Made by a program: the position numbers and the translations under genes | Assembly (NCBI RefSeq): GCF_022045235.1 | Contig: NW_027266274.1 | Coordinates: 11,842,001 to 11,906,000, forward strand | DNA from: Haliotis cracherodii | Taxonomy: Eukaryota | Length of the DNA: 64,000 bases | Reading direction: 5' to 3' | Shown: positions 876 to 61,199 of the stretch, one piece after another | Position numbering within the stretch: position 1 is the stretch's first letter | Layout of the letters: each line of letters begins with the position of its first letter | The notes under the pieces: generated by a model | Database searches by the model: none | Told to the model about the DNA's origin: nothing | The model's input: the letters and a program-made list of their open reading frames with translations, nothing else

Positions 876-1103
876 ACAAAGATAATAAGGCTCGTATATG
901 GTCAAAAAGTACAGTTCTGAAGTAATGTAAAGGTGTAAACAATCACGACATCATTTCTGATTTTACGTAAAAATCATAAAACACGTCCCATTATTATTCT
1001 GGGAACCCATTTGTCCAGAAACTCTCCATGCTGTGGCCAGTCTCGATCAAATGTTACAAGTTCCAACATCAGGTCTTTGAAAGGCATTTAGAAGTGATAC
1101 ACA

Positions 1104-1187
1104 TAAGGAAGAGAATATGTGGATGTGAACTTCTTTGTTATGAGGAACACAACGTTTCGGAGTATATGCTTGCTCCTTCATCAGGTG
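1104..1187 (-). ncRNA. Penelope-like element terminus with a minimal type I hammerhead ribozyme (core 1148-1187)
   Basis: The minus strand reads CAC-CTGATGA-A-GGAG(caagcatata)CTCC-GAAA-CGTT-GTG. This gives stem I CAC/GTG, an intact CUGAUGA and GAAA core, stem II GGAG/CTCC and a loopless palindromic stem III (AACGTT), as in the minimal hammerheads of Penelope-like elements. Confidence 0.8.
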
Positions 1188-1395
1188 ACTTACTTACTTA
1201 CTTACTTACTTTACTTACTTTACTTACTTTCTTACTTACTTTGGAGATTTAACGTGCGCTTTCCGACTGATGCGTATTTCGCACACGGGCCCGGCCAGGC
1301 CATTATATGTGTTTCCGAAAGGGGCGAAAGTGGTGTGTGCAACCCAAGAGGGGGCTTTAGGGGCTGCTTATATAGAATTTGGGAATTTTGAGATT
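1188..1395 (-). mobile_element. 3' terminal fragment of the I-group LINE family of 53795-57008, with (TAAG)n tail
   Basis: It is nearly identical to about 53795-53962 (TTGGAGATTTAACGTGCGCTTTCCGACTGATGCG...GGGAATTTTGAGATT) and has an expanded CTTA repeat at 1189-1240. Confidence 0.9.
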
Positions 1396-1405
1396 GTTTC
1401 AACTT

Positions 1406-2656
1406 CATTACCATGTCTGTAAAAGTTCGAGGCATTAACAAATCCCTACCCAGGGACCTTGTCGGGGTCATTCTACCCCTCTTGTCATACAAGATGGCCA
1501 GTTACATCCTCACAGCCGATCGATCAGGTGGATTAAGGAACATCCAAATCTCCTTTGACACCAACAACCCCCAAAAGCTCAAAGTTCGGACCACGTCTCT
1601 ACACTCAGAGCCTGTCAAACTACCCTCAGGTAAAGCAACCAATCAAACTCAACACCTACTCCCAGCCCTATTTACACCGGCCACCTTCATGCGGGAAAAG
1701 CAAAGGAAACATCTAAGCACCTCCACCCACCCACCCACCCCATTCGGACCGGTCAACACAGACTCAACAAATCACCCCTACTATCATACCTTCTCAAGCC
1801 CAATCCAATTAGACTCAACAAACACCAACCAATCTCCCCTCTACTAAAACAAAAAAACCTTGAATCTTCCACCTCACCTATTCAGTCCCCGGATCTGTTA
1901 ACCACCCCCACCCAAACTGACCCCATCAACTTCCACCCCATAGTAACAGAAGCACAACTAACACAAAATATTATTAAACATGCTCAGCAAATTTTCACCG
2001 TCCAATATCTCCTGCCCAAGGTTCAATCCCTTGAAACAGAACGTTTTGACCATGAAATCCTAACCCTTCAAGATCTAAATTCTTTTCTGACAGAAACTCA
2101 AAACCAGGTAACACCTCAATTCATCATGAACACCTCAGCTCACTTTATTTAAAAACAATATCACCCCCTCACTGTCTTCGACTTCAATCTGACTAGAACC
2201 CTCCTCTTCACACGGCTTATGCGCAAGCCCCATATCAATCAATACCCCAGCCCAGCCAGTTTAGACTTACTTACATTAGGCTTTTAAACCCCATATTCTA
2301 CATTGCAGCTTAACTGCAAATATATTAACCCCATTATGCTTTACCTTTTCTTCAAGTACAGCTTACAATTACTAGGATAGATTATTTAGCACTTTCTACT
2401 CTTTTCAGGCCTTAAATCCTTCATTCAAAATTTACCTCTCTTAATATATTACCATTTAACTTATCTCCTTTTATTTATAACTTAATACACTTGTTGTACA
2501 TTATAGCCGTAGTTGTATAGGATTAGGTTTATGCACCCTTTACTTACAGGTTTTTGGGGTTGGTTTTTACCTATATTAAAACATTATTTAGATATGGCGA
2601 AATTTGCAGTGGTAGAAGCGGTCGTTAAACTTCCAAGACAGAACATGGCATTCATT
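1406..2656 (+). mobile_element. LINE-related retroelement segment with an I-group-type 3' tail and a disrupted orphan ORF
   Basis: It starts CATTACC-ATG and has an A/C-rich sense strand like LINE 53795-57008. Its end GCGAAATTTGCAGTGGTAGAAGCGGTCGTTAAACTTCCAAG...CATTCATTC aligns with that LINE's end GCGAAATACGCATCAGTCGGAAAGCGCACGTTAAATCTCCAAAG. Confidence 0.6.
1413..2287 (+). pseudogene. Disrupted ORF of about 290 codons, unknown function
   Basis: ORF 1413-1847 overlaps a second frame that is open from about 1634 to 2287 except for one TAA near 2150 (...LESSTSPIQSPDLLTTPTQTDPINFHPIVTEAQLTQNIIKHAQQIFTVQYLLPKVQSLETERFDHEILTLQDLNSFL...). One frameshift joins the two. No domain recognised. Confidence 0.45.
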
Positions 2657-2739
2657 CACCTGGTAAGGAGTAAGCATATACTCACTCACTAAGTGTTCCT
2701 CATAATAAAGAGGTTGACATCCCTATATTCTCTTCCTTA
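2656..2739 (+). repeat. Degenerate inverted copy of the hammerhead terminus at 1104-1187
   Basis: TCACCTGGTAAGGAGTAAGCATATACTC...GTGTTCCTCATAATAAAGAGGTTGACATCCCTATATTCTCTTCCTTA matches the reverse complement of 1104-1188. The catalytic core is mutated (CTGGTA, GAAA lost) and an AATAAA is present. Confidence 0.85.
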
Positions 2740-2828
2740 AGTTTTTCAACATACCGATTTGGGGGTATATACTTAGGAAGAAAAAATGAAAATAAATGTT
2801 TCGAAAATTCAAAATTTATACTGTCGCA

Positions 2829-3090: not shown

Positions 3091-3944
3091 AAGATGTGTT
3101 CATTACCGCATGAGTCTCCAAAAGACTTAAGTTTTCTGTCAACATGATGTGCTCCCTGAACCCTCCAGATTTACACACATACGCAATGCATGCTAATCAA
3201 CACTCTGTCAGTGGCAAAGGGATGGATTTAAGACTTTAAGTTAGTTTTCAATTACAGAGTCAACAAATTTTAGAAAAGACCGTTCACGTTATTAACAGGA
3301 GTTCATCCAGGGAGAATAGATCTGTTTAAAAGTGTCACTCTTCCACAAGGTTTCCTCGCCCTAAGAAATTATTTGTCAGTGTGTGAGAGTAATGTGTGTG
3401 TCAGATTAAAAAACCCTATAACTGTTCTTTAGTCTGTTTTTCAAATTAGTGCATCAAGACTAGTTACGTTATTACTCCAGAAACATAGAAAACAACGTGC
3501 AGTTTGATAAGGCAGATTTTTTTTATGTCAGATAAGACTGATTTATGTCGACACAACCTTGAATAATCCACTGGTGTATAATTGTTAAAATTCCATTGTT
3601 TTACCATCTTGGAATAACCTCCAGATGTGACGGTTGCTCTGACCCTGACCCTGAAAACCTTTCGTGATATTTCTTGAATAAGTTAGAATATACAAACTCA
3701 TGCCCCATTTTAATTTCTAGAGGTTCTTTCTTTTATCGATTTTAATTATTCTTTCAAAACACACTATTTACAATGTCCATACATGTATTATATAGAGTAT
3801 GGGATCTTGAAATATTAATGTGAATGTCAAGTATTAGAACAAAAATACTGGTAATCCAGGATATGTTGAACCAACCGTTTGAGACAATTAGGCAGCACAG
3901 AATTTGGACAAACATAATTGGTTTGTTTCAGATAGATGTGAGAT

Positions 3945-4217
3945 TAGGTGAAATGCCGTTTAACGTCGCGTCCAAGAAAATTGCACTTATATAGCGACGT
4001 GCAGCAACGTGTGTGTGTGGCTACTTGGACTAGTCCGGACACAGTATACTGACTCTGAGCTGACCCGTCCTTGTTTTACCCCCTTGATGCCGAGCGACAG
4101 ACAGGGTAACACCAAGTACCATCTTTTAACGTCTTTTGGTATGACGCGGCCGGGGATCGAACCCCGAGCATTCCGGTCTCCGGGAGGACGCACTATCACT
4201 AGCCCACGGAGGCGGTC
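3945..4217 (-). mobile_element. tRNA-derived SINE, family 1, internally deleted
   Basis: It shares TTTTGGTATGACGCGGCCGGGGATCGAACCCCG and the terminal CCACGGAGGCGGTC with 104-440. Confidence 0.8.
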
Positions 4218-5508
4218 TACAGTTAGAGAGGGTTTACGCATGTTAAGCACGTGCAGGTTACGAAGATGAAATTGACAAAGCACACGTGTTGCTCATCAGC
4301 ACGTTCTATTGTGTACTATTGAACTCGCCACAAGAACGCGTTTTTAGCTGACACAGAACACGCACATATTCATCATACCACTTGTCGCGGACCAACCGCT
4401 ACCCCTTTGTTCACAATGGTATGCGCCAGTGGGCGGACATACATTGTCATACGAGGTTACTTGTCAGATCATAATCAACTTATTGAAAACACCCATCTCC
4501 GTTACCGCCCGGATCCATTCAGCGCCCATTTGAGTGACAACGAGACACCGTTGTGGGGGGAAGTGCTGTTTTGTGTTGAAATAAATATTTCTTAAGCTTA
4601 ATGAAATATCTAACAAGCTTTCCTGTACAGACAAAACGTTTATTCATCGGAATACTGAATGCCTTAGAATAACATCATTTCCACTGACCTTGCACCTTTA
4701 AACATCTTGTAAGCAGAATGTTACATGTGTGTTTAGCGCTGCCAGACTTTTTACAAACATTTTTGTATATTATAAATCCCAACTCATTGTAATTTCAGTA
4801 GCGTCTTTGTCCACGTTTAGAAGACTTACGAAAAACACGATTCATTTTCATGTCAGTTGATATAAAATCAAAATATTCGGGCTCCACATTGGACATTATC
4901 AAAACATTTTTACCAATAAAATACTTTCACCCGTGAAAACATACCACGATTAGGGCTTTATCAAGTGTTTGTTGAATCAGGCCAAAAAACATTGTCGCGG
5001 GTTATGAAGAGACGTATGTAAATAATAGCGACAAACCTCTTACATAATAATCATAAGACATCTCTGCTTAAGTAAAGTCCATTCTACATTGTACAGATTC
5101 TCATAATTCGCCCACTTTAGGATGCGATTGTTCGCGCAATGTGTTGATCTGTGTTGCCCAAATACATCTAAGAGGAACAACCAAAATCCTTTAAACAATA
5201 GCATCGTCCAATTTATCAAGTTACGAGCTCATTTCGAATCTCAAGAACTGACGTCATGGTAGAAAAATGTTTTGTAGTGAAATAGATGATGCCTCTTTCT
5301 TCATTGTTCTTAGCGACGTATACAGTTTATATAATAACACTCTTGCCCTCGTGGTCAAACTATACCTATTTGGGGCCTAACCAACATCTCATAGAGAACA
5401 GATGATAGATCCATGTCAGTAGGGCTTTGTACATGTATGTATATGCTTTTTAACTTTGACAAAGGTAGAGGATGGTATAAAAAGACAAATTAATCTGAAC
5501 ATGTATCA

Positions 5509-53666: not shown

Positions 53667-53794
53667 ATTTGTCAGTCCCAGGGGCCTGGGTGATTGACAA
53701 CCGTGCAGTTTAAGCTGGTGAGCGAACCGAGCTTGGTAGGCACGGAGGGTTGTGTACAGTACGGGACCTGTTACACAACTGAATGATCTTGTAC

Positions 53795-56700
53795 TTACTT
53801 ACTTACTTTGGAGATTTAACGTGCGCTTTCCGACTGATGCGTATTTCGCACACGGGCCCGGCCAGGCCATTTAATGTGTTTCCGAAAGGGGCGAGGGTGG
53901 TCTGTGCAACCCAAGAGGGGGCTTTAGGGGTTGCTTATATAGAATTTGGGAATTTTGAGATTTGGAATAGATGCCGATGGGGTTGGGGAGGAGAACTAAG
54001 GGAGCTGGGTATGGTGGATGATTGTTTGTTTATGTGATTTTGATTTGGTAGGTTATTATGGTTTTAGATGCGTTTTATTAGTTCCGTTTTTATTAAGAAT
54101 ACGCCTAAGGCCTTGAAGTTTTCTAGTTTATTTTGTGGGTTTAGTATTGCTTCTAGAGTGAGAGCCTTGTTTAGATTGAGGGTGGTTTGTAATGCGGTTC
54201 GATGTGTTAGGTAGTGCGTGTTCTGGGGTTTCTGGTTGTTTGCAGTGTGGGCAGTTACCTGTAGTGTGTTTTTTAATTTTTTTTAGGTGGTTATTTAGGT
54301 TGGTGTGTCCTGTTTGGAGTTTAGTGATTACTCTGTCGATTTTTTTTGATGGATGGAGAATTTTTGGTTTGGTTAGTGGTTTGCTGAGCACTCTTTTGAT
54401 TTGGCTATTTGAGTTTAGATATAGGTTATGCCATTTTTTTGTGATTTTTTGTTTGTTTACACTTTTAATTTCTGATTTTGAGATGGGTAAGTTTAAGCTT
54501 ATTTCTGGGATTTTGAGGGATAGTTTAGCTGCTTTATCGGCGTTTTCATTACCGTATATTCCTACGTGGGCGGGTATCCACAAGAAGGTTATTTGTTTGC
54601 CTGCTTTTGTTAGGTCGTTGGAGCTTTTAAGTATTTGATTTATTAATTTAGGTCGGTTTTTGGTATTTTTGTTTTGGAGGGCTTGTAGTCCACTTAGGGA
54701 GTCAGTAAGTATTAGGATTTTTTGGTTGTTTTGGATTCTTGATTGTGGAGGGCTGAGGCCATGCCCATTAGTTCGGCCGTGAATATTGATTGGTTATTTG
54801 GGAGTCGGAAGGATTGTGTGGTTTTAGTTGGTTGTGTGGTATGGACTCCGAAACCCGTGTGTTTGGAGGTCGGATCTGAGGATCCGTCCGTGTAAATGTG
54901 ACACCAATTTGGCCAATTTTTGTGTATATATGCTAGTGTGGTAGTTTTAGCTATGTTTGGGTCGGTTTGTTTATTTATTTGGCTAGCTAGTGTTGTGTCT
55001 ATTTTGGGTATTTTAAGTTTAGGGGTGAAGATATTTGATTGTTTGCAGTTTTATTTAAGATTTTTAATTTGGTGTTCATTTAGGTAGTTTGTTATTCTTT
55101 GGGATATTGGGGTAAGTAAGGGGTGTTTACGAGCTAGAGCTTGGTTTTTAGGGCTGATGTTTTGGTTTATTAAGTTTTGGATGAGAGGGTTTGATTGGGA
55201 CGCGGCCCAGAAATTTAAGCTTAGCTGTTCCCTGCGTAGACTTAGTGGCATTTCTCCTGTTAAGGCCTGAAGTGAGGTGTAGGAGGTGCCATGTTGGGTG
55301 CGTGTAATGAGTTTGAGAGCCTGATATTGTATTGAGTCAAGTTTTTTAGATAGAGAGTTGTTTAGGGTGTTGTATATGGCGCAGCCGTAGTCTAGTTTTG
55401 ATCTAATTAGGCATATGTAGAGAGAGAGGAGAGTATCTTTGGAGGCTCCCCAGTTAGAGCCAGTTAGGCATCTTAGGGTGTTTAGGTCTTTACTGCATTT
55501 AGTTGTTAGGTTTTGGATGTGAGCATCCCAGGTGAGATGTTCATCGAAAATAAGTCCTAAGAATTTGGTTTGTTTTTGAAATTTGATTGTTTGATTGTTT
55601 AGCTGGAGGATTGGGGAGGCGGGTTTCATGTTTTTATGTTTGAATACTATTCCTGTTGTTTTTTCTGAGTTAAGGGAGAAGCCCCATTTGTCAGCCCATT
55701 GTTGTATTTTATTAAGAGATTTTTGGAGTAGATTTTTGGCCATTTTCATGCTTTTTGTGCGGATCCAGATGGCTCCATCATCCGCGAATTTTGATGTGTT
55801 TACTTTAGGGGATAGACCCTCGAATAGATCGTTTATCATTATATTGAAGAGGGTGGGGCTGAGGATACTGCCCTGTGGAGTGCCATTTTCTAGGGGACAT
55901 TGGTCCGATAGAGTTTGGTCTATACACACGGTTATTTTACGATTGTTTAGGAAGTCCTGGATGTAGTTTATTATCTGACCTTTGAGTCCTATTTTTTTAA
56001 GTTTTTGTATTAGCCCATCGTGCCATACCATGTCGAAAGCTTTAGAGAAGTCTAAGAAGATGCCTGTGGTATATTGTTTATTTAGTTGTCCTGTCTTAAT
56101 ATCTTGTTCTAGTCGGGCGAGGTTATCTAGGGTTGAGCGGCCAGGAGTGAAACCGCTTTGATCTGGGTTTATGGTGTTATTTTGGGTTAAGTAATGTTGT
56201 AATCTATTTTTAGCCATTGATTCCATTACTTTACATAAGTTTGAAGTTAGGGATATTGGTCTATATGAGTTAGCTTGATTAGCTGGTTTATTAGGTTTAG
56301 GGATTGGTATGACTAGGGCCTGTTTCCAGGGAGTAGGAACCTGTCCGTTTAGGTAGATGAGATTGTATAGTTTGAGTAGTGCCTGGAGCAGTTTTAGGGG
56401 GAGTTTTTTAATTATTTGGTAAGAGGTTAGGTCTAATCCTGGGGCTGTGCCCTTTTTCCTGTTTTGGATTACGTAGAGGAGCTCCTCCATTGTGTAGGGT
56501 TGATTTATTTCTAGATTGTTATTGTTTGGTTCTTTTGTGGGTTTGTTTTCTGTTTTAAGTTTATCTTGGAATTTTTGGCTGAAGTTGCTGTTACTGCTAA
56601 CGGCCGAAAAGTGGTTGGCGAGATTATTTGCTTTTTGGGCGGGGTTGGTTGAGTTGTTAATGTTAGTTTTTTTTTTTATGTCGTCTTAAGCCTCTAATGG

Positions 56701-57008
56701 CGTGGATTTTGCGCCAGACCGTTCTGGCATCTGTACGGTTATTTATACCTTCGCAGAATTTTTTCCAGTCTCTACTTTTGGCTATTTGGACTAGTTTTTT
56801 GAACCTGGTGGTTTAGTTCGTGGGCTATGTTTAAATATTTGTAGTCGCGTTTTGCTTTATTGAAGGCTGATTTACGTTTTCGTCTAGTCTGTTCTATTTC
56901 CTCATTCCACCATGGTACCGTCGGTTTGCCTGTCTTAGATGTTTTGAAGGGGATGGAGGTTTTGGCTGCGTTTATTATATAGTCTGTTAGGTTTTTACAA
57001 TAGGTTTT
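53795..57008 (-). mobile_element. LINE B: 5'-truncated I-group LINE with RT, RNase H, CCHC, (TAAG)n tail and 11-bp TSD
   Basis: The TSD TGATCTTGTAC lies at 53784-53794 and 57009-57019. RT motifs are FLDFSKAFDMV, GTPQGSILSP and FADD. RNase H motifs are IYTDGS, SIFTAEL, LTDSLS and WIPAHVGIYGNENAD. The C-terminus is LQTGH...CPHC...ETPEH. Confidence 0.95.
54128..57008 (-). pseudogene. LINE B ORF2, disrupted
   Basis: A 479-aa RT ORF (55051-56490) is followed by an in-frame TAA at 55051, RNase H in the same frame and a frameshift near 54740. Upstream frameshifts lie at 56.6-56.9 kb. The linker GKPTVPWWNEEI is homologous to LINE A GKTPVPWWNREI. Confidence 0.9.
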
Positions 57009-57197
57009 TGATCTTGTACATATAAAAATCTTATATACTTCTAACTTGGGTTTCAGAACAAAGAGACATCCAACTCACAATTCAAACAACTTTTGCGTTA
57101 ATGTCGCATCTTCTCAATACAAGATATAGTAGTAGAGATTAACTGATTCCCGCGTGTTGTTATAGTTTCATCGTTTTTTTACTAGATTACTTAATCT

Positions 57198-57589: not shown

Positions 57590-58170
57590 CGACACCTGAT
57601 CAGGCTACCAACTCTGAACTTACAACAACTACTGAACAAGCTAATATCTCTAACATCTAATAGATGAACAGTTTGCAGTCTCTGCCCTGACAATAGCGCA
57701 ATCAAAGTCACAGTTTTAAGTGTCAAATCTTTCAACGACAGTTCCTTCAAGGCATCAATGTTTTCAGATAACTTAGAACAACACTGGTATCCCACCTCAC
57801 GGAGTTTCTGGGCAGTGAGGGGCGAGTCTGAAAAACTCCCTTCATGAAGCGGTTAATGAGAGGATGAGATCCAATGGTGACGTTATCTGCTGATGTAACA
57901 CAGGACAGAGCGGATCTGGCTGTGGTAAGTGCACTGTAACCAAGGTTGTGTAACTCATAGAGTTCCGTCAGAAAATCTAACACCTCGGTCACAGATGGAC
58001 ACAGCGTATCAATTCCCCTTTGATTACAAAACGCAACCCATCTCTTGATGTATGTGGAGTACTGGTCTCTAGTGGATTTGCGCCAGGATTGGAGGATAAC
58101 ACTGGCAGCTCTGTCCGAAACTCCTCTCCGTGTAAGAGATTGCCTGATAAGGGAAACACTGCAAGTTTCA
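57590..58170 (-). pseudogene. DIRS tyrosine recombinase, N-terminal half
   Basis: It contains SWRKSTRDQYSTYIKRW, FLTEL, YSALTTARSALS, HPLINRFMKGVF..RPSLP and LTLKTVTLIALLSGQR (first catalytic Arg). The C-terminal HxxR and Tyr are absent. Confidence 0.88.
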
Positions 58171-59904
58171 TTCTGTCGAGAGAGTGTCTCGCCTCCTTGT
58201 TGTGTGGAAGGCGTAGGATCTGAGAGACTGGTGGTAGTATGACGGTAGTATGGTGGATGGATGAGGAGTCTGAAGAGTCGGGAGAACCATGGTTGTGTGG
58301 GCCACACTGGGGCCACTAGTAGTCCTCTTGCTTGGTCTTCTTCCACTTTCTTTATCACTGCATTGAGCATGCTGAAAGGCGGGAAAGCGTAGAAGTAAGT
58401 ATTCCATGCAAACGTAAAAGAGTCAATGGCACATGCATCTGGGTCTGGCTTCCAAGAAGCATATTTCTCAAGTCTAGTATTAAGTCTTGAGGCAAACAAA
58501 TCTATGTCAGGTTTTCCAAGTACCCTACATATTTCACTGAACACTTCATCAACGATGTACCACTCAGTATTGTCTTTCATTATTCTAGATTCTCGATCCG
58601 CAATCACATTGTCTTTACCCGGAACATGGCAAGCACTTAACCACAAGTTTCGATGCAGACCCCATAGCCAAGCGTATTTCGCACACGGAAGCCGCAAGTA
58701 ACTCAAGGTAGTTTAAATGTTTAACGGTTTCATCACGTGACCACCGGCCGCCGGTGGACTGTTTCCCGCGGGCCCCACCCCACCCGGTGTCTGACGCGTC
58801 AGAGGTCAGGGTAATTACCGGAGGTGTGACACTTATCGGCTTGCTACTTGTACACACATTATCTACCCACCATTGTAGATCAGCCGTTTGATCTGTGGTG
58901 ACTTCCAATACCTTGTCAAAATTGCCTTTCGCGTTTCGAAGAGCCGTTGTCAAGGCGACGGAAGTTAAGGGGACCTAATCGAACTCCGGGAAAGCACGCT
59001 ACCATGTAACCAATCACCTCGGCTAGTTCCCGGATCGAACACAACTGTTTCTTGAGTAATGCTTCACAGGCTTGTTTCACGAACTGAGCTTTAGATGGAA
59101 CTGGAAAACGGTCATTGATGACGAGTTGATTACAAAACCAAGAAAAGTGATTTCCTGTGTAGGTGACAGTGCCGATTTTTCAGGGTGTAAAACAAAGCCT
59201 AGTTTGGTGAACAAGACAGCAGTTTCCGAAACAAACGTTGAACATTCTTTCTTATCATCACCAACGATGAACGAATCATCAATGTATCCGACATTAGTGT
59301 GTCCCCGTGTTCTCAGAAATGAAAACGGCACTCTGAGTAATTTTGTGAAGTATCTAGGAGCACAACTAAGTCCATTTGGCAGAACAGTAAACTGGTAAAG
59401 CTGACCTTGCCAGAAGAATTTAAGGTATTTCTGATGATTTGGATGAACAGGCACAGTGTAGTAGGCATCTTTCAAATCTATCGATGCCATGTAACAGTCC
59501 TTACGCACTAATGAGAGGGCAGTTGTAAGGCTCTCCATCTTGAAATGGACATAGTCTACACTTCCATTTAGTTGCTTCAGATTCAGGATAAGTCTGCATG
59601 TCCCGTTTTTCTTAAGTCTAATGAAGATTGTGGATATGTATTAACCATGTTCACGACGTGATGGAACGATAACTCCCTTAGCTAAAAGTTTAGCAATTTC
59701 TCCACCTATGATGAAATGTTCTTGGGGTGAGAAGCTAATTTCTTTGGGAATATGCAACTGGATGGGCAACGAAGTAAAGTCTATGTAAGAACCAGTTACA
59801 GTCTGCAAGATAAACGGGTCTGAAGATAGTTCTTGCCAGCTCTGAACGTGAAATCGTAGTCTACCCGCAACAAATACATTGTTTGGTATATTGCAAGTGC
59901 TCAC
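58170..59904 (-). pseudogene. DIRS pol: RT, RNase H and N6-adenine methyltransferase-like domain
   Basis: RT motifs are AGRLR...W, SIDLKDAYYTVP, YQFTVLPNGLSCAPRYFTK and GYIDD. RNase H motifs are TSDASDTGWG, HLNYLELLA and HVPGKDNVIADRESR. Methyltransferase-like motifs are IDLFASRLN, WKPDP and YAFPPFS. Confidence 0.9.
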
Positions 59905-59921
59905 CTCTCTTGGGGTACCAG

Positions 59922-61199
59922 TTAGTGCCTCCCCCCTTCGAATTTCCTCTTGTGGAAGGGGCGACTCCTGTCTAAAAAAACCCTTGCTCTCACCGGGTTG
60001 CCATGGTTACGGCTGGTTGCATAAGAGGGAGTCTTGTATGCAGTAAACGGCTTGTGGTAGGGCGCCGGGCGCTGCTGACTGTAGGTGAGTTGTTGAGCCA
60101 ATCTGTTGGTCATACTCATTGACGTGATCGTTTCCGCCAAGTTGTCTCCAAACAGCAGGGTAGACATAGGCGTCTGAGGTGAACACAACTGCTGGAATTG
60201 CTTATTGAGATGTGGTCTGATCATTTCCCGTCGGCGGTAGTTTAGCTCTGTGTTCACGTGAGCGAGCAGACTAATGGCATCAGTGGCCTGTTTCGCCAGT
60301 TGTTTGATGTCTAATTGCTGCACTGACATTTCCTTGTTCTAACTTTTAGCAGGTCGCTGGCCAGGTGTAGCAATGGCACAGCTGCCCTAAGGACAGGAGC
60401 TTGGAGTTTCTGCATCTTTATGTCATTTGACCGTTCTTGTGATTTGAGCTTAGTCCAGATTTCTGGGTTGACTTTGCTCGTTTTCACCAACTCACAGTTG
60501 TGGGGAGACTTGTAAACTGAAAGTTTCTCTTTCAACTTTTCTTCAGGCATTTTCTTGAACATCATATTGTTCATTGCCTCTGCCAACTTTGGTTGTATGG
60601 GGGGGCCTAAGAGATCTCCGTTGGTATAATCCTGAAGCGGGGAGTCTAAGAGATCACTACTCTCATCCATTTGCGTGGAGTCATCCGCTGTTCCCAGAGC
60701 ACCTGCAGCCTCTTCAGCTGCCACCGCGCTAGAGTCGGCATCATCAAAGAGGTCTTCCATGGCGCCGTTCCCGCAATGGTCAGAGAGCTCGTCGCTAGAC
60801 TCATGGCCCATGGCGCTCCCACCCCTCCCCTCTTTCATCATATGGAGGACGGGTCACAGTTGCACTGGCAAGGCTGAGGGGTGGCGTCTGATTCACAAAT
60901 GAAGCTATAGTGTCTCCAAGTTTGGAAATAGATGATGTCATACTGGATATCAGCTGCTGAGTGTTCTTATTCTGTTGCATGACTTGGGCTAGGAGCCAGT
61001 CTTGACTCTCATTAGAGGGTGTAGTCGTAGACTTGCCGTTGGAGGCCTGGTTATCTGCCGAGTTACTAACCTCTTTGGCTTGTTTGGAACTGGATTTGGG
61101 TTGTTCCTTAGATGCCAGGGAGCGCTTTTTAGCGCATTTAGGACGTGGCTTTGGACATCCTTCTCCACCTTTAGATGATGAAGCATTCATGTCATCCAA
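59922..61199 (-). pseudogene. DIRS gag-like ORF1 in three frameshifted pieces
   Basis: It contains SPHNCELVKTSKVNPEIW...SNDIKMQKLQ and LNYRRREMIRPHLN..FQQLCS...LLFGDNL, typical of DIRS1 ORF1. Confidence 0.8.

Follow-up and report, generated by a model that had tools for sequence, protein, structure and literature searches.

Frequent insertion of a LINE family behind TATA boxes, and a head-to-head LINE-Penelope cassette as its rare by-product

How do the 3' ends of two different retroposons come to lie head-to-head, each running into the terminus of a Penelope-like element? Such a unit occupies positions 1070-2738 of the window, the 64,000-nucleotide stretch of Haliotis cracherodii DNA analysed here. 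In the reading that we prefer, with a probability of about 0.6, one of the two retroposons, LINE-B, targets TATA promoters through the Pol II start complex, and the cassette was most likely built by Penelope reverse transcriptase (RT) from LINE-Penelope RNAs. The cassette is a rare by-product, and the targeting rule behind it is the main finding. Its parts, with the flanking target-site duplication (TSD), are as follows.

1058..1069, plus strand: left copy of the decayed outer TSD; word single-copy in 19/24 paralogues of the flanking repeat
1070..1187, minus strand: Penelope-like terminus, long form with tail, intact candidate minimal hammerhead core at 1184-1155; 96% to nearest copies
1188..1241, minus strand: LINE-B (TAAG)n tail, 13 units, irregular, 54 nt (TRF); same tail on 1814 exact LINE-B ends
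1242..1395, minus strand: LINE-B 3' end, 154 nt (APE-RT-RNase H, I group); 98% to many copies
1396..2643, plus strand: element C, low-copy retroposon with a LINE-B-like 3' motif and a short (ACAG)-like tail, 5' end slightly clipped; relatives 72-91% alike
2644..2738, plus strand: Penelope-like terminus, short form, hammerhead core decayed, starting with native CATGGCATTCATTCAC
2739..2752, plus strand: right copy of the decayed outer TSD; same paralogue comparison as for the left copy

A preliminary description of this locus had reported two LINE 3' ends fused head-to-head, each followed at the same position by a Penelope hammerhead terminus, with no TSD. The head-to-head layout was borne out (the inverted arms are 81% alike), as were the LINE-B 3' end (1242-1395, minus strand) with its 54-nt (TAAG)n tail (1188-1241), which abuts TCAC-CTGATGA, and the meeting point of the two halves, which join at 1395/1396. 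Several other parts of the description had to be revised. The supposed (CATT)n tail on the right is Penelope's own sequence, with GGCATTCATTCAC standing before the core in 282 exact copies (control 0), and therefore the two junctions do not lie at the same base: the left tail ends 4 nt, and the tail of element C 13-16 nt, before the core. A hammerhead had been assigned to both ends; the left core is intact, and the right one is broken (CTGGT-AAG, with GAAAC replaced). The left Penelope end extends to about 1070 rather than 1104, the extra stretch being the 30-40-nt 'tail' of Penelope-like elements, and a decayed 12-14-bp TSD, in the copies AAGTTCCAACAT (1058-1069) and AAGTTTTTCAACAT (2739-2752), flanks the whole unit (1070-2738). 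The right-hand element had been taken for a LINE, and no ORF2 domain was found in it.

The hammerhead-bearing end appears, from its coding neighbours, to belong to a Penelope-like family. It lies 101-192 nt 3' of ORFs (L302 and L303) that carry a YQIP...YIGET motif, which we take to be of the GIY-YIG type; these ORFs are 47-49% identical to the C-terminal part of the L312/L313 ORFs, which have Pfam RVT_1, and Pfam returned no GIY-YIG match in the motif-bearing ORFs. Minimal hammerheads consist of a CUGANGA core, stem II, GAAAC, a palindromic stem III and a short stem I. Read from the sequence, the left arm offers CUGAUGA, GGAG/CUCC, GAAACGUU and CAC/GUG as a candidate minimal hammerhead, and the same pattern was absent from the right arm. 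An Rfam scan gave no hammerhead match at E<=1, and the minimum-energy structure of the single strand differs from the hammerhead fold (z -0.68); such misses are expected for hammerheads that need dimers or protein help. Tandem arrays with 73-nt and 57-nt periods and the 12-mer core pattern were also seen elsewhere (G000:C1:7437176-7438428 and C1:28702192-28703003, respectively), and are possibly retrozyme-like or possibly unrelated.

The outer frame of the cassette is one Penelope insertion. Both flanks are one repeat, and 19 of the 24 paralogues examined pass through the site uninterrupted, with the TSD word in single copy. An inverted arm within 1.5 kb was present in 8 of 30 Penelope loci, every one of which pairs one long with one short end (L056 was counted as having a long end, by its letters); the TSD was 11-13 nt in five of these, 7-8 nt in two and absent in one. 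Like these plain inverted insertions, the cassette has a long end on one side, a short one on the other and a TSD of about 12 nt around both, and therefore the frame stems from a single Penelope insertion. According to the accessible parts of the literature on EN+ Penelope-like elements, their units have inverted pLTRs, a 30-40-nt tail at one end and a TSD, with a putative TATA box and Inr in the pLTR, and two RT start sites are described (PMC3846280, PMC8557442, PMC11167929). The same partial texts describe that pLTRs can carry unrelated sequence between them (PMC3846280), and that Penelope RT starts inside its own RNA and extends both strands, independent of hammerhead cleavage (PMC11167929). 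The cassette resembles such units in its inverted pLTRs, single tailed end, TSD and captured sequence, and differs in its cargo, which is made up of 3' ends from LINE-type elements whose target is the pLTR promoter; such a cargo goes unmentioned in those parts of the papers (PMC3846280, PMC8557442, PMC11167929).

LINE-B is a young family with 1814 exact 3' ends genome-wide. A full-length copy (L197) measures 6551 nt and has frames of 582 and 1260 aa, with Pfam matches to Exo_endo_phos_2, RVT_1 and RNase_H. ORF1, an ORF2 with APE, RT and RNase H, a short tandem-repeat tail and TSDs of 7-14 nt place it among the I-group LINEs, where it may be Nimb-like. The left segment was also considered as a DIRS/Ngaro terminal repeat, which was dropped, the segment being a LINE 3' end. 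Many LINE-B copies are only 45-50 nt long, cut at a shared position immediately 5' of the terminal stem-loop, which suggests a fixed RT stop (L082, L086, L091, L094, L102, L171, L176, L185, L194, L218, L221 and L224). At L182/L183 and L255, LINE-B 3' ends lie head-to-head with the Penelope frame absent on one or both sides, and at L182 the tail is followed by LINE-B's own 5' end.

Element C shares with LINE-B only the 3' motif. Judging from its sequence, it is likely a non-autonomous element of about 1.3 kb with an I-type 3' end; its two longest frames gave no Pfam domain indicative of ORF2 remnants. Its (ACAG)-like tail (L032) ends at about 2643. In contigs of related organisms, the element continues at least 30 nt 5' of 1398, and organism B contains C-like pieces about 94% alike, with orthology unproven.

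Tail-to-hammerhead junctions, whose genome-wide enrichment the preliminary description had proposed to examine, were defined as a (TAAG) tail at most 20 nt before a hammerhead core and were counted in the 1.18-Gb genome. The 70 rows obtained represent 50 distinct sites among 3457 cores (control 90), compared with 0.056 expected under random placement; the enrichment is about 900-fold, or 326-fold if 5000 LINE-B ends are taken. LINE-B sequence lies upstream of the tail in all 50 junctions. When LINE-B ends were taken in genome order (rows 1-93, with 3 rows skipped and 5 duplicates removed), nine of the 85 distinct ones had a hammerhead after them, and three Penelope families are involved. Read by eye, 35 of the 50 junctions have the LINE within an intact Penelope end, with the TATA region and the duplicated target directly 5' of it; of the rest, one is an unresolved tandem and 14, including the window's, are without the promoter. 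Tails end 8-19 nt before the core, the window's left junction (-4) being the only one of the 50 below 8 nt. Mostly, then, LINE-B used its own mechanism to insert into Penelope DNA that was already in place.

The sites chosen by LINE-B were characterised by rebuilding 57 empty sites from 119 LINE-B ends, after exclusion of 27 ends with no 5' end in reach, 28 with no TSD, 3 duplicates and 4 tandem or same-site copies. TSDs at the 57 sites are 7-14 nt long, mostly 10-12 nt. TATAWA starts at -36 to -24 from the TSD end at 26 of these sites, compared with a single mirror-strand case and 0-3 cases in each of four other intervals, and the same interval gives 18/48 for non-Penelope sites (mirror 0). 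In a scan with a rough TATA matrix, the best-scoring word begins at -31 or -30 in 18/48 and at -34 to -27 in 29/48 (7 expected). The spacing was first seen in a discovery set, and 60 further copies fetched afterwards formed a held-out set, in which TATAWA was found at 12/34 sites versus 0 on the mirror strand (p=1.5e-4); the held-out non-Penelope sites (7/29, p=0.01) gave a weaker signal than those of the discovery set (11/19). A control SINE from the same loci, put through the same test, had the TATA spacing in 0/9 cases. The first LINE-B nick falls 18-22 nt past the first T of TATA and the second cut about 30-31 nt past that T; A/T content peaks 24-30 nt before the TSD end, the 3' side of the peak being A-rich. 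Unrelated non-Penelope sites and three Penelope families of different sequence have the same TATA spacing.

LINE-B thus often targets TATA boxes, in sense orientation and about 20 nt behind them, with strict TATAWA present in fewer than half of the sites (26/57). Penelope ends carry a TATA just before the hammerhead, and therefore LINE tails accumulate there. The preliminary description had considered that the LINEs might target the hammerhead sequence; a preference for the spot stood, and the target proved to be a TATA box about 34 nt upstream of the hammerhead instead. The window holds an independent example of the rule, which lies outside the 57-site statistics:

53792..57010, minus strand: second LINE-B copy in the window; 98.8% to L197, 10-nt TSD, TATATAA 19 nt upstream

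The sequence 3' of the tail of this copy recurs after LINE-B tails at L184, L188 and L199, as another reused target. Six of the 85 LINE-B ends also lie immediately upstream of the ATG in a single family of ORFs, and Pfam assigned FLYWCH to both of the two ORFs tested. The start codon of FLYWCH ORFs, probably of a transposon, recurrently has LINE-B and a C relative on its 5' side (L100, L101, L167, L176, L186, L219, L318-L320 and L040). The TATA rule was not established for the element C family: two genome searches for more ends gave 2 and 5 matches, too few for the test, and one member (L039) has a hammerhead junction and no TATA at its possible 5' TSD. Only L294, from another related family, has the full TATA signature.

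What guides the LINE to these sites can be judged from the geometry of the cuts and from their one-sidedness. A TATA box lies about 30 nt before the transcription start site; therefore, the second cut would be +1 and the TSD would span the stretch opened at initiation. Guidance by host factors, namely the Pol II start complex, is in our judgement probable. TBP/TFIIB or the opened promoter would position the LINE-B endonuclease, and the second cut would mark the start of transcription. More tentatively, the LINE may be tethered to an oriented Pol II start complex and cut at both borders of the stretch opened at initiation, at about -11 and +1, leaving even 5'-truncated copies at the +1 of active promoters; a LINE tethered in this way would parasitise promoters of host genes, of Penelope and of further transposons, and Penelope RT would re-mobilise the LINE-Penelope read-through RNAs in the form of head-to-head cassettes. 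The Penelope TATA lies in a palindrome, CATATATATG, and insertions are confined to its transcribed side (13 versus 0). No antisense LINE-B junction occurs among 467 copies of the upstream 14-mer, which is present in 13 of 28 sense sites checked, and a looser antisense search gave 36 distinct sites with no Penelope among them. This one-sidedness could stem from a better nick sequence on the transcribed side.

Three other accounts of the junctions were weighed. The LINE-B protein itself might read an A/T-rich, TATA-like word and cut about two helical turns away without any host factor, which is possible, if somewhat improbable. The RTE elements provide a precedent with an upstream T-stretch, as far as the available portion of the source goes (PMC6007223). 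An Inr-like word behind the targeted TATAs is not significantly enriched (3/23 versus 86/1590, p=0.13), and decayed Penelope copies (L008 and L190) are targeted too, both of which suit direct reading; however, a symmetric word such as CATATATATG should serve both directions, and the second cut falls at the would-be start site, where Penelope cDNAs stop. Recognition of the hammerhead sequence or structure by the LINEs would agree with three hammerhead families being hit at similar offsets, but is highly improbable, given that 76 of the 85 LINE-B ends have no hammerhead after them and that copies with dead cores are also targeted; it is refuted by the non-Penelope sites with the same TATA spacing. 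The other option of the preliminary description, that Penelope RT copied about 85 nt of terminus and then jumped onto LINE RNAs, is very unlikely as the general cause. The absence of the promoter from 14 of the 50 junctions speaks for it, as does the window's left junction (-4), which falls within the range where Penelope cDNAs end: among 22 Penelope ends without a LINE-B tail, not selected by prefix, 11 lack the promoter, and in 6 of these the break falls 4-9 nt before the core, where transcription is predicted to start. Because promoter and duplicated target are kept at the LINE 5' end in 35/50 junctions, such jumping nevertheless cannot explain the majority; the other junctions, 8-19 nt before the core, lie off the predicted RNA 5' end, and non-Penelope sites have identical spacing. 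Jumping is refuted as the general cause and remains a candidate for the left arm of the cassette.

For the cassette itself, we give even odds to assembly by Penelope RT copying LINE-Penelope RNAs. Transcription of an inserted LINE copy would begin at the captured promoter and run on through the hammerhead, and Penelope RT, starting downstream in the tail, would copy back into the LINE. The right arm would derive from a C-Penelope read-through RNA. For the left arm, the template would be a LINE-B-Penelope RNA, or else the RT would have reached the 5' end of Penelope RNA and jumped onto LINE-B RNA. In one precedent (L315, G000:C1:38443800-38447300), two LINE-B ends lie head-to-head with a short Penelope end on one side, a long one on the other and a TSD of 14 nt that has one mismatch. 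The arms of L315 are 97% alike and have the same junction and three rare variants in common, whereas at least three were shared in 7 of 1128 other pairs; they look as expected if Penelope RT had copied one chimeric RNA twice. At three further loci (L236, L250 and L253), LINE-B is joined to one internal Penelope position upstream of the promoter, where plain copies (L070 and L303) join too. This recurring join hints at Penelope-made products, and the position is perhaps a preferred template-switch or RNA end.

A stepwise origin under the same targeting is quite possible: an inverted Penelope would have received element C in its right promoter and LINE-B in its left, and lost its middle then or later. 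At L238 (G000:C34:38157864-38165403), LINE-B occupies both promoters of an inverted Penelope whose middle is retained, with four short LINE-B ends stacked at one of the promoters; this would be the undeleted intermediate, and loss of its middle would give the layout of the cassette. Insertion in place is also the majority route (35/50), and by its identity to nearest copies LINE-B seems a little younger than the arms of Penelope (98% versus 96%); however, this age gap is not significant (4/154 versus 11/170), and the ages of the parts do not separate the two routes (p=0.12), nor do the contigs from related organisms. The left junction at -4 fits run-off from the 5' end of Penelope RNA and equally the second cut of LINE-B, whose position it would be if the overhang was trimmed. 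Against the stepwise origin stand the need for two rare hits plus a deletion removing both promoters and both 5' TSDs, and the seemingly Penelope-made precedent for the exact head-to-head architecture (L315). That four independent pieces became nested by chance, or that the assembly is in error, is barely credible. No single contig in the runs examined spans the whole cassette, but contigs from two studies of the same organism hold the interior of element C and bridge the joins between C, Penelope and the right flank (2500-2858); the roughly 900-fold enrichment and the single outer TSD also argue against this account. For the junction class, chance nesting is refuted.

TATA targeting by LINE-B can be compared with known systems. 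Within the available text, TRE5-A of Dictyostelium (L1 clade) and Ty3 of yeast are placed by TFIIIB/TBP at Pol III genes, TRE5-A being an APE-type non-LTR element whose ORF1p binds TBP, Brf1 and Bdp1 (PMC5911963). As is characteristic of promoter-tethered elements, LINE-B keeps both its distance from a promoter element and its orientation to it constant, and is like these two in its fixed distance from the promoter and little sequence preference at the cut; it is unlike what the text describes in its Pol II-type TATA boxes, its downstream and sense insertion and its RNase H (I group), and for LINE-B contact with a protein is a prediction (PMC5911963). The RTE Tn-TA signature, as given in the consulted sections, is a T-stretch about 10 nt before a TSD starting with T (PMC6007223, PMC13295347). 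LINE-B shares with this partly available account a split signature, in which the cut keeps a fixed distance from an A/T word on its upstream side (PMC6007223, PMC13295347), but has no T-stretch near the TSD start; its TATA(W)A, used one-sidedly at the palindrome, precedes the TSD by about 20 nt, and the first base of that TSD is not fixed. Tx1-Mar and SINEU prefer a site in another transposon, Mariner-N4_AMi, form tandem stacks and may borrow the flanking promoter, on the portion of the source consulted, and LINE-B behaves likewise in all three respects (PMC4494074). In that source, Tx1-Mar belongs to the Tx1 clade and has one target family, whereas about 10% of LINE-B copies lie in Penelope as a by-product of a general TATA rule; the 9/85 LINE-B ends in Penelope ends of all families fall below the >20% of copies in one target that marks Tx1/R1-type elements there (PMC4494074). 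The Drosophila I element, of the same broad group, likewise favours promoter-related sites, with a moderate enrichment and, in the text available, a broad preference about 100-200 bp upstream of start sites without strand bias; the word 'TATA' is absent from that text (PMC10018349).

Our literature search, with subscription papers and Repbase entries outside its scope, turned up no LINE described as inserting behind Pol II TATA boxes at a fixed distance from them. The upstream motif of trypanosome ingi is a possible parallel to the TATA spacing of LINE-B. TATA targeting is absent from the accessible parts of bioRxiv 10.64898/2026.07.22.740005, PMC4758252 and PMC11203168. As the sections at hand describe it, site specificity among APE-type LINEs is credited to the Tx1 and R1 clades (PMC6007223), and base-precise promoter tethering to Pol III genes (PMC5911963). 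Placement of a LINE to within a few bases relative to Pol II TATA boxes would be a targeting mode new to this list, and would let truncated, promoter-less LINE copies be transcribed. LINE-B would be a selective mutagen of TATA promoters in host genes and rival transposons, and its insertion sites would map germline TATA promoters. That a palindromic TATA is used on one side only provides a direct test of tethering versus DNA reading, and chimeric cassettes bear on how inverted Penelope ends are built and on whether two RNAs serve one insertion.

Another short element occurs twice in the window:

104-441 and about 3938-4218, minus strand for both: (CACCT)n-tailed SINE

The copy at 104-441 fits the Haliotis MESC SINEs as described in the available part of the source (PMC4758252). 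At copies of this SINE elsewhere, CTATA often lies inside the duplication. By their motifs, the open frames at 57749-60853 (minus strand) are presumably gag, RT and RNase H/recombinase of a DIRS-like element. Between about 20300 and 46900, the same small tandem repeats occur four times at a spacing of about 8 kb, which suggests a tandem array of a unit of about 8 kb.
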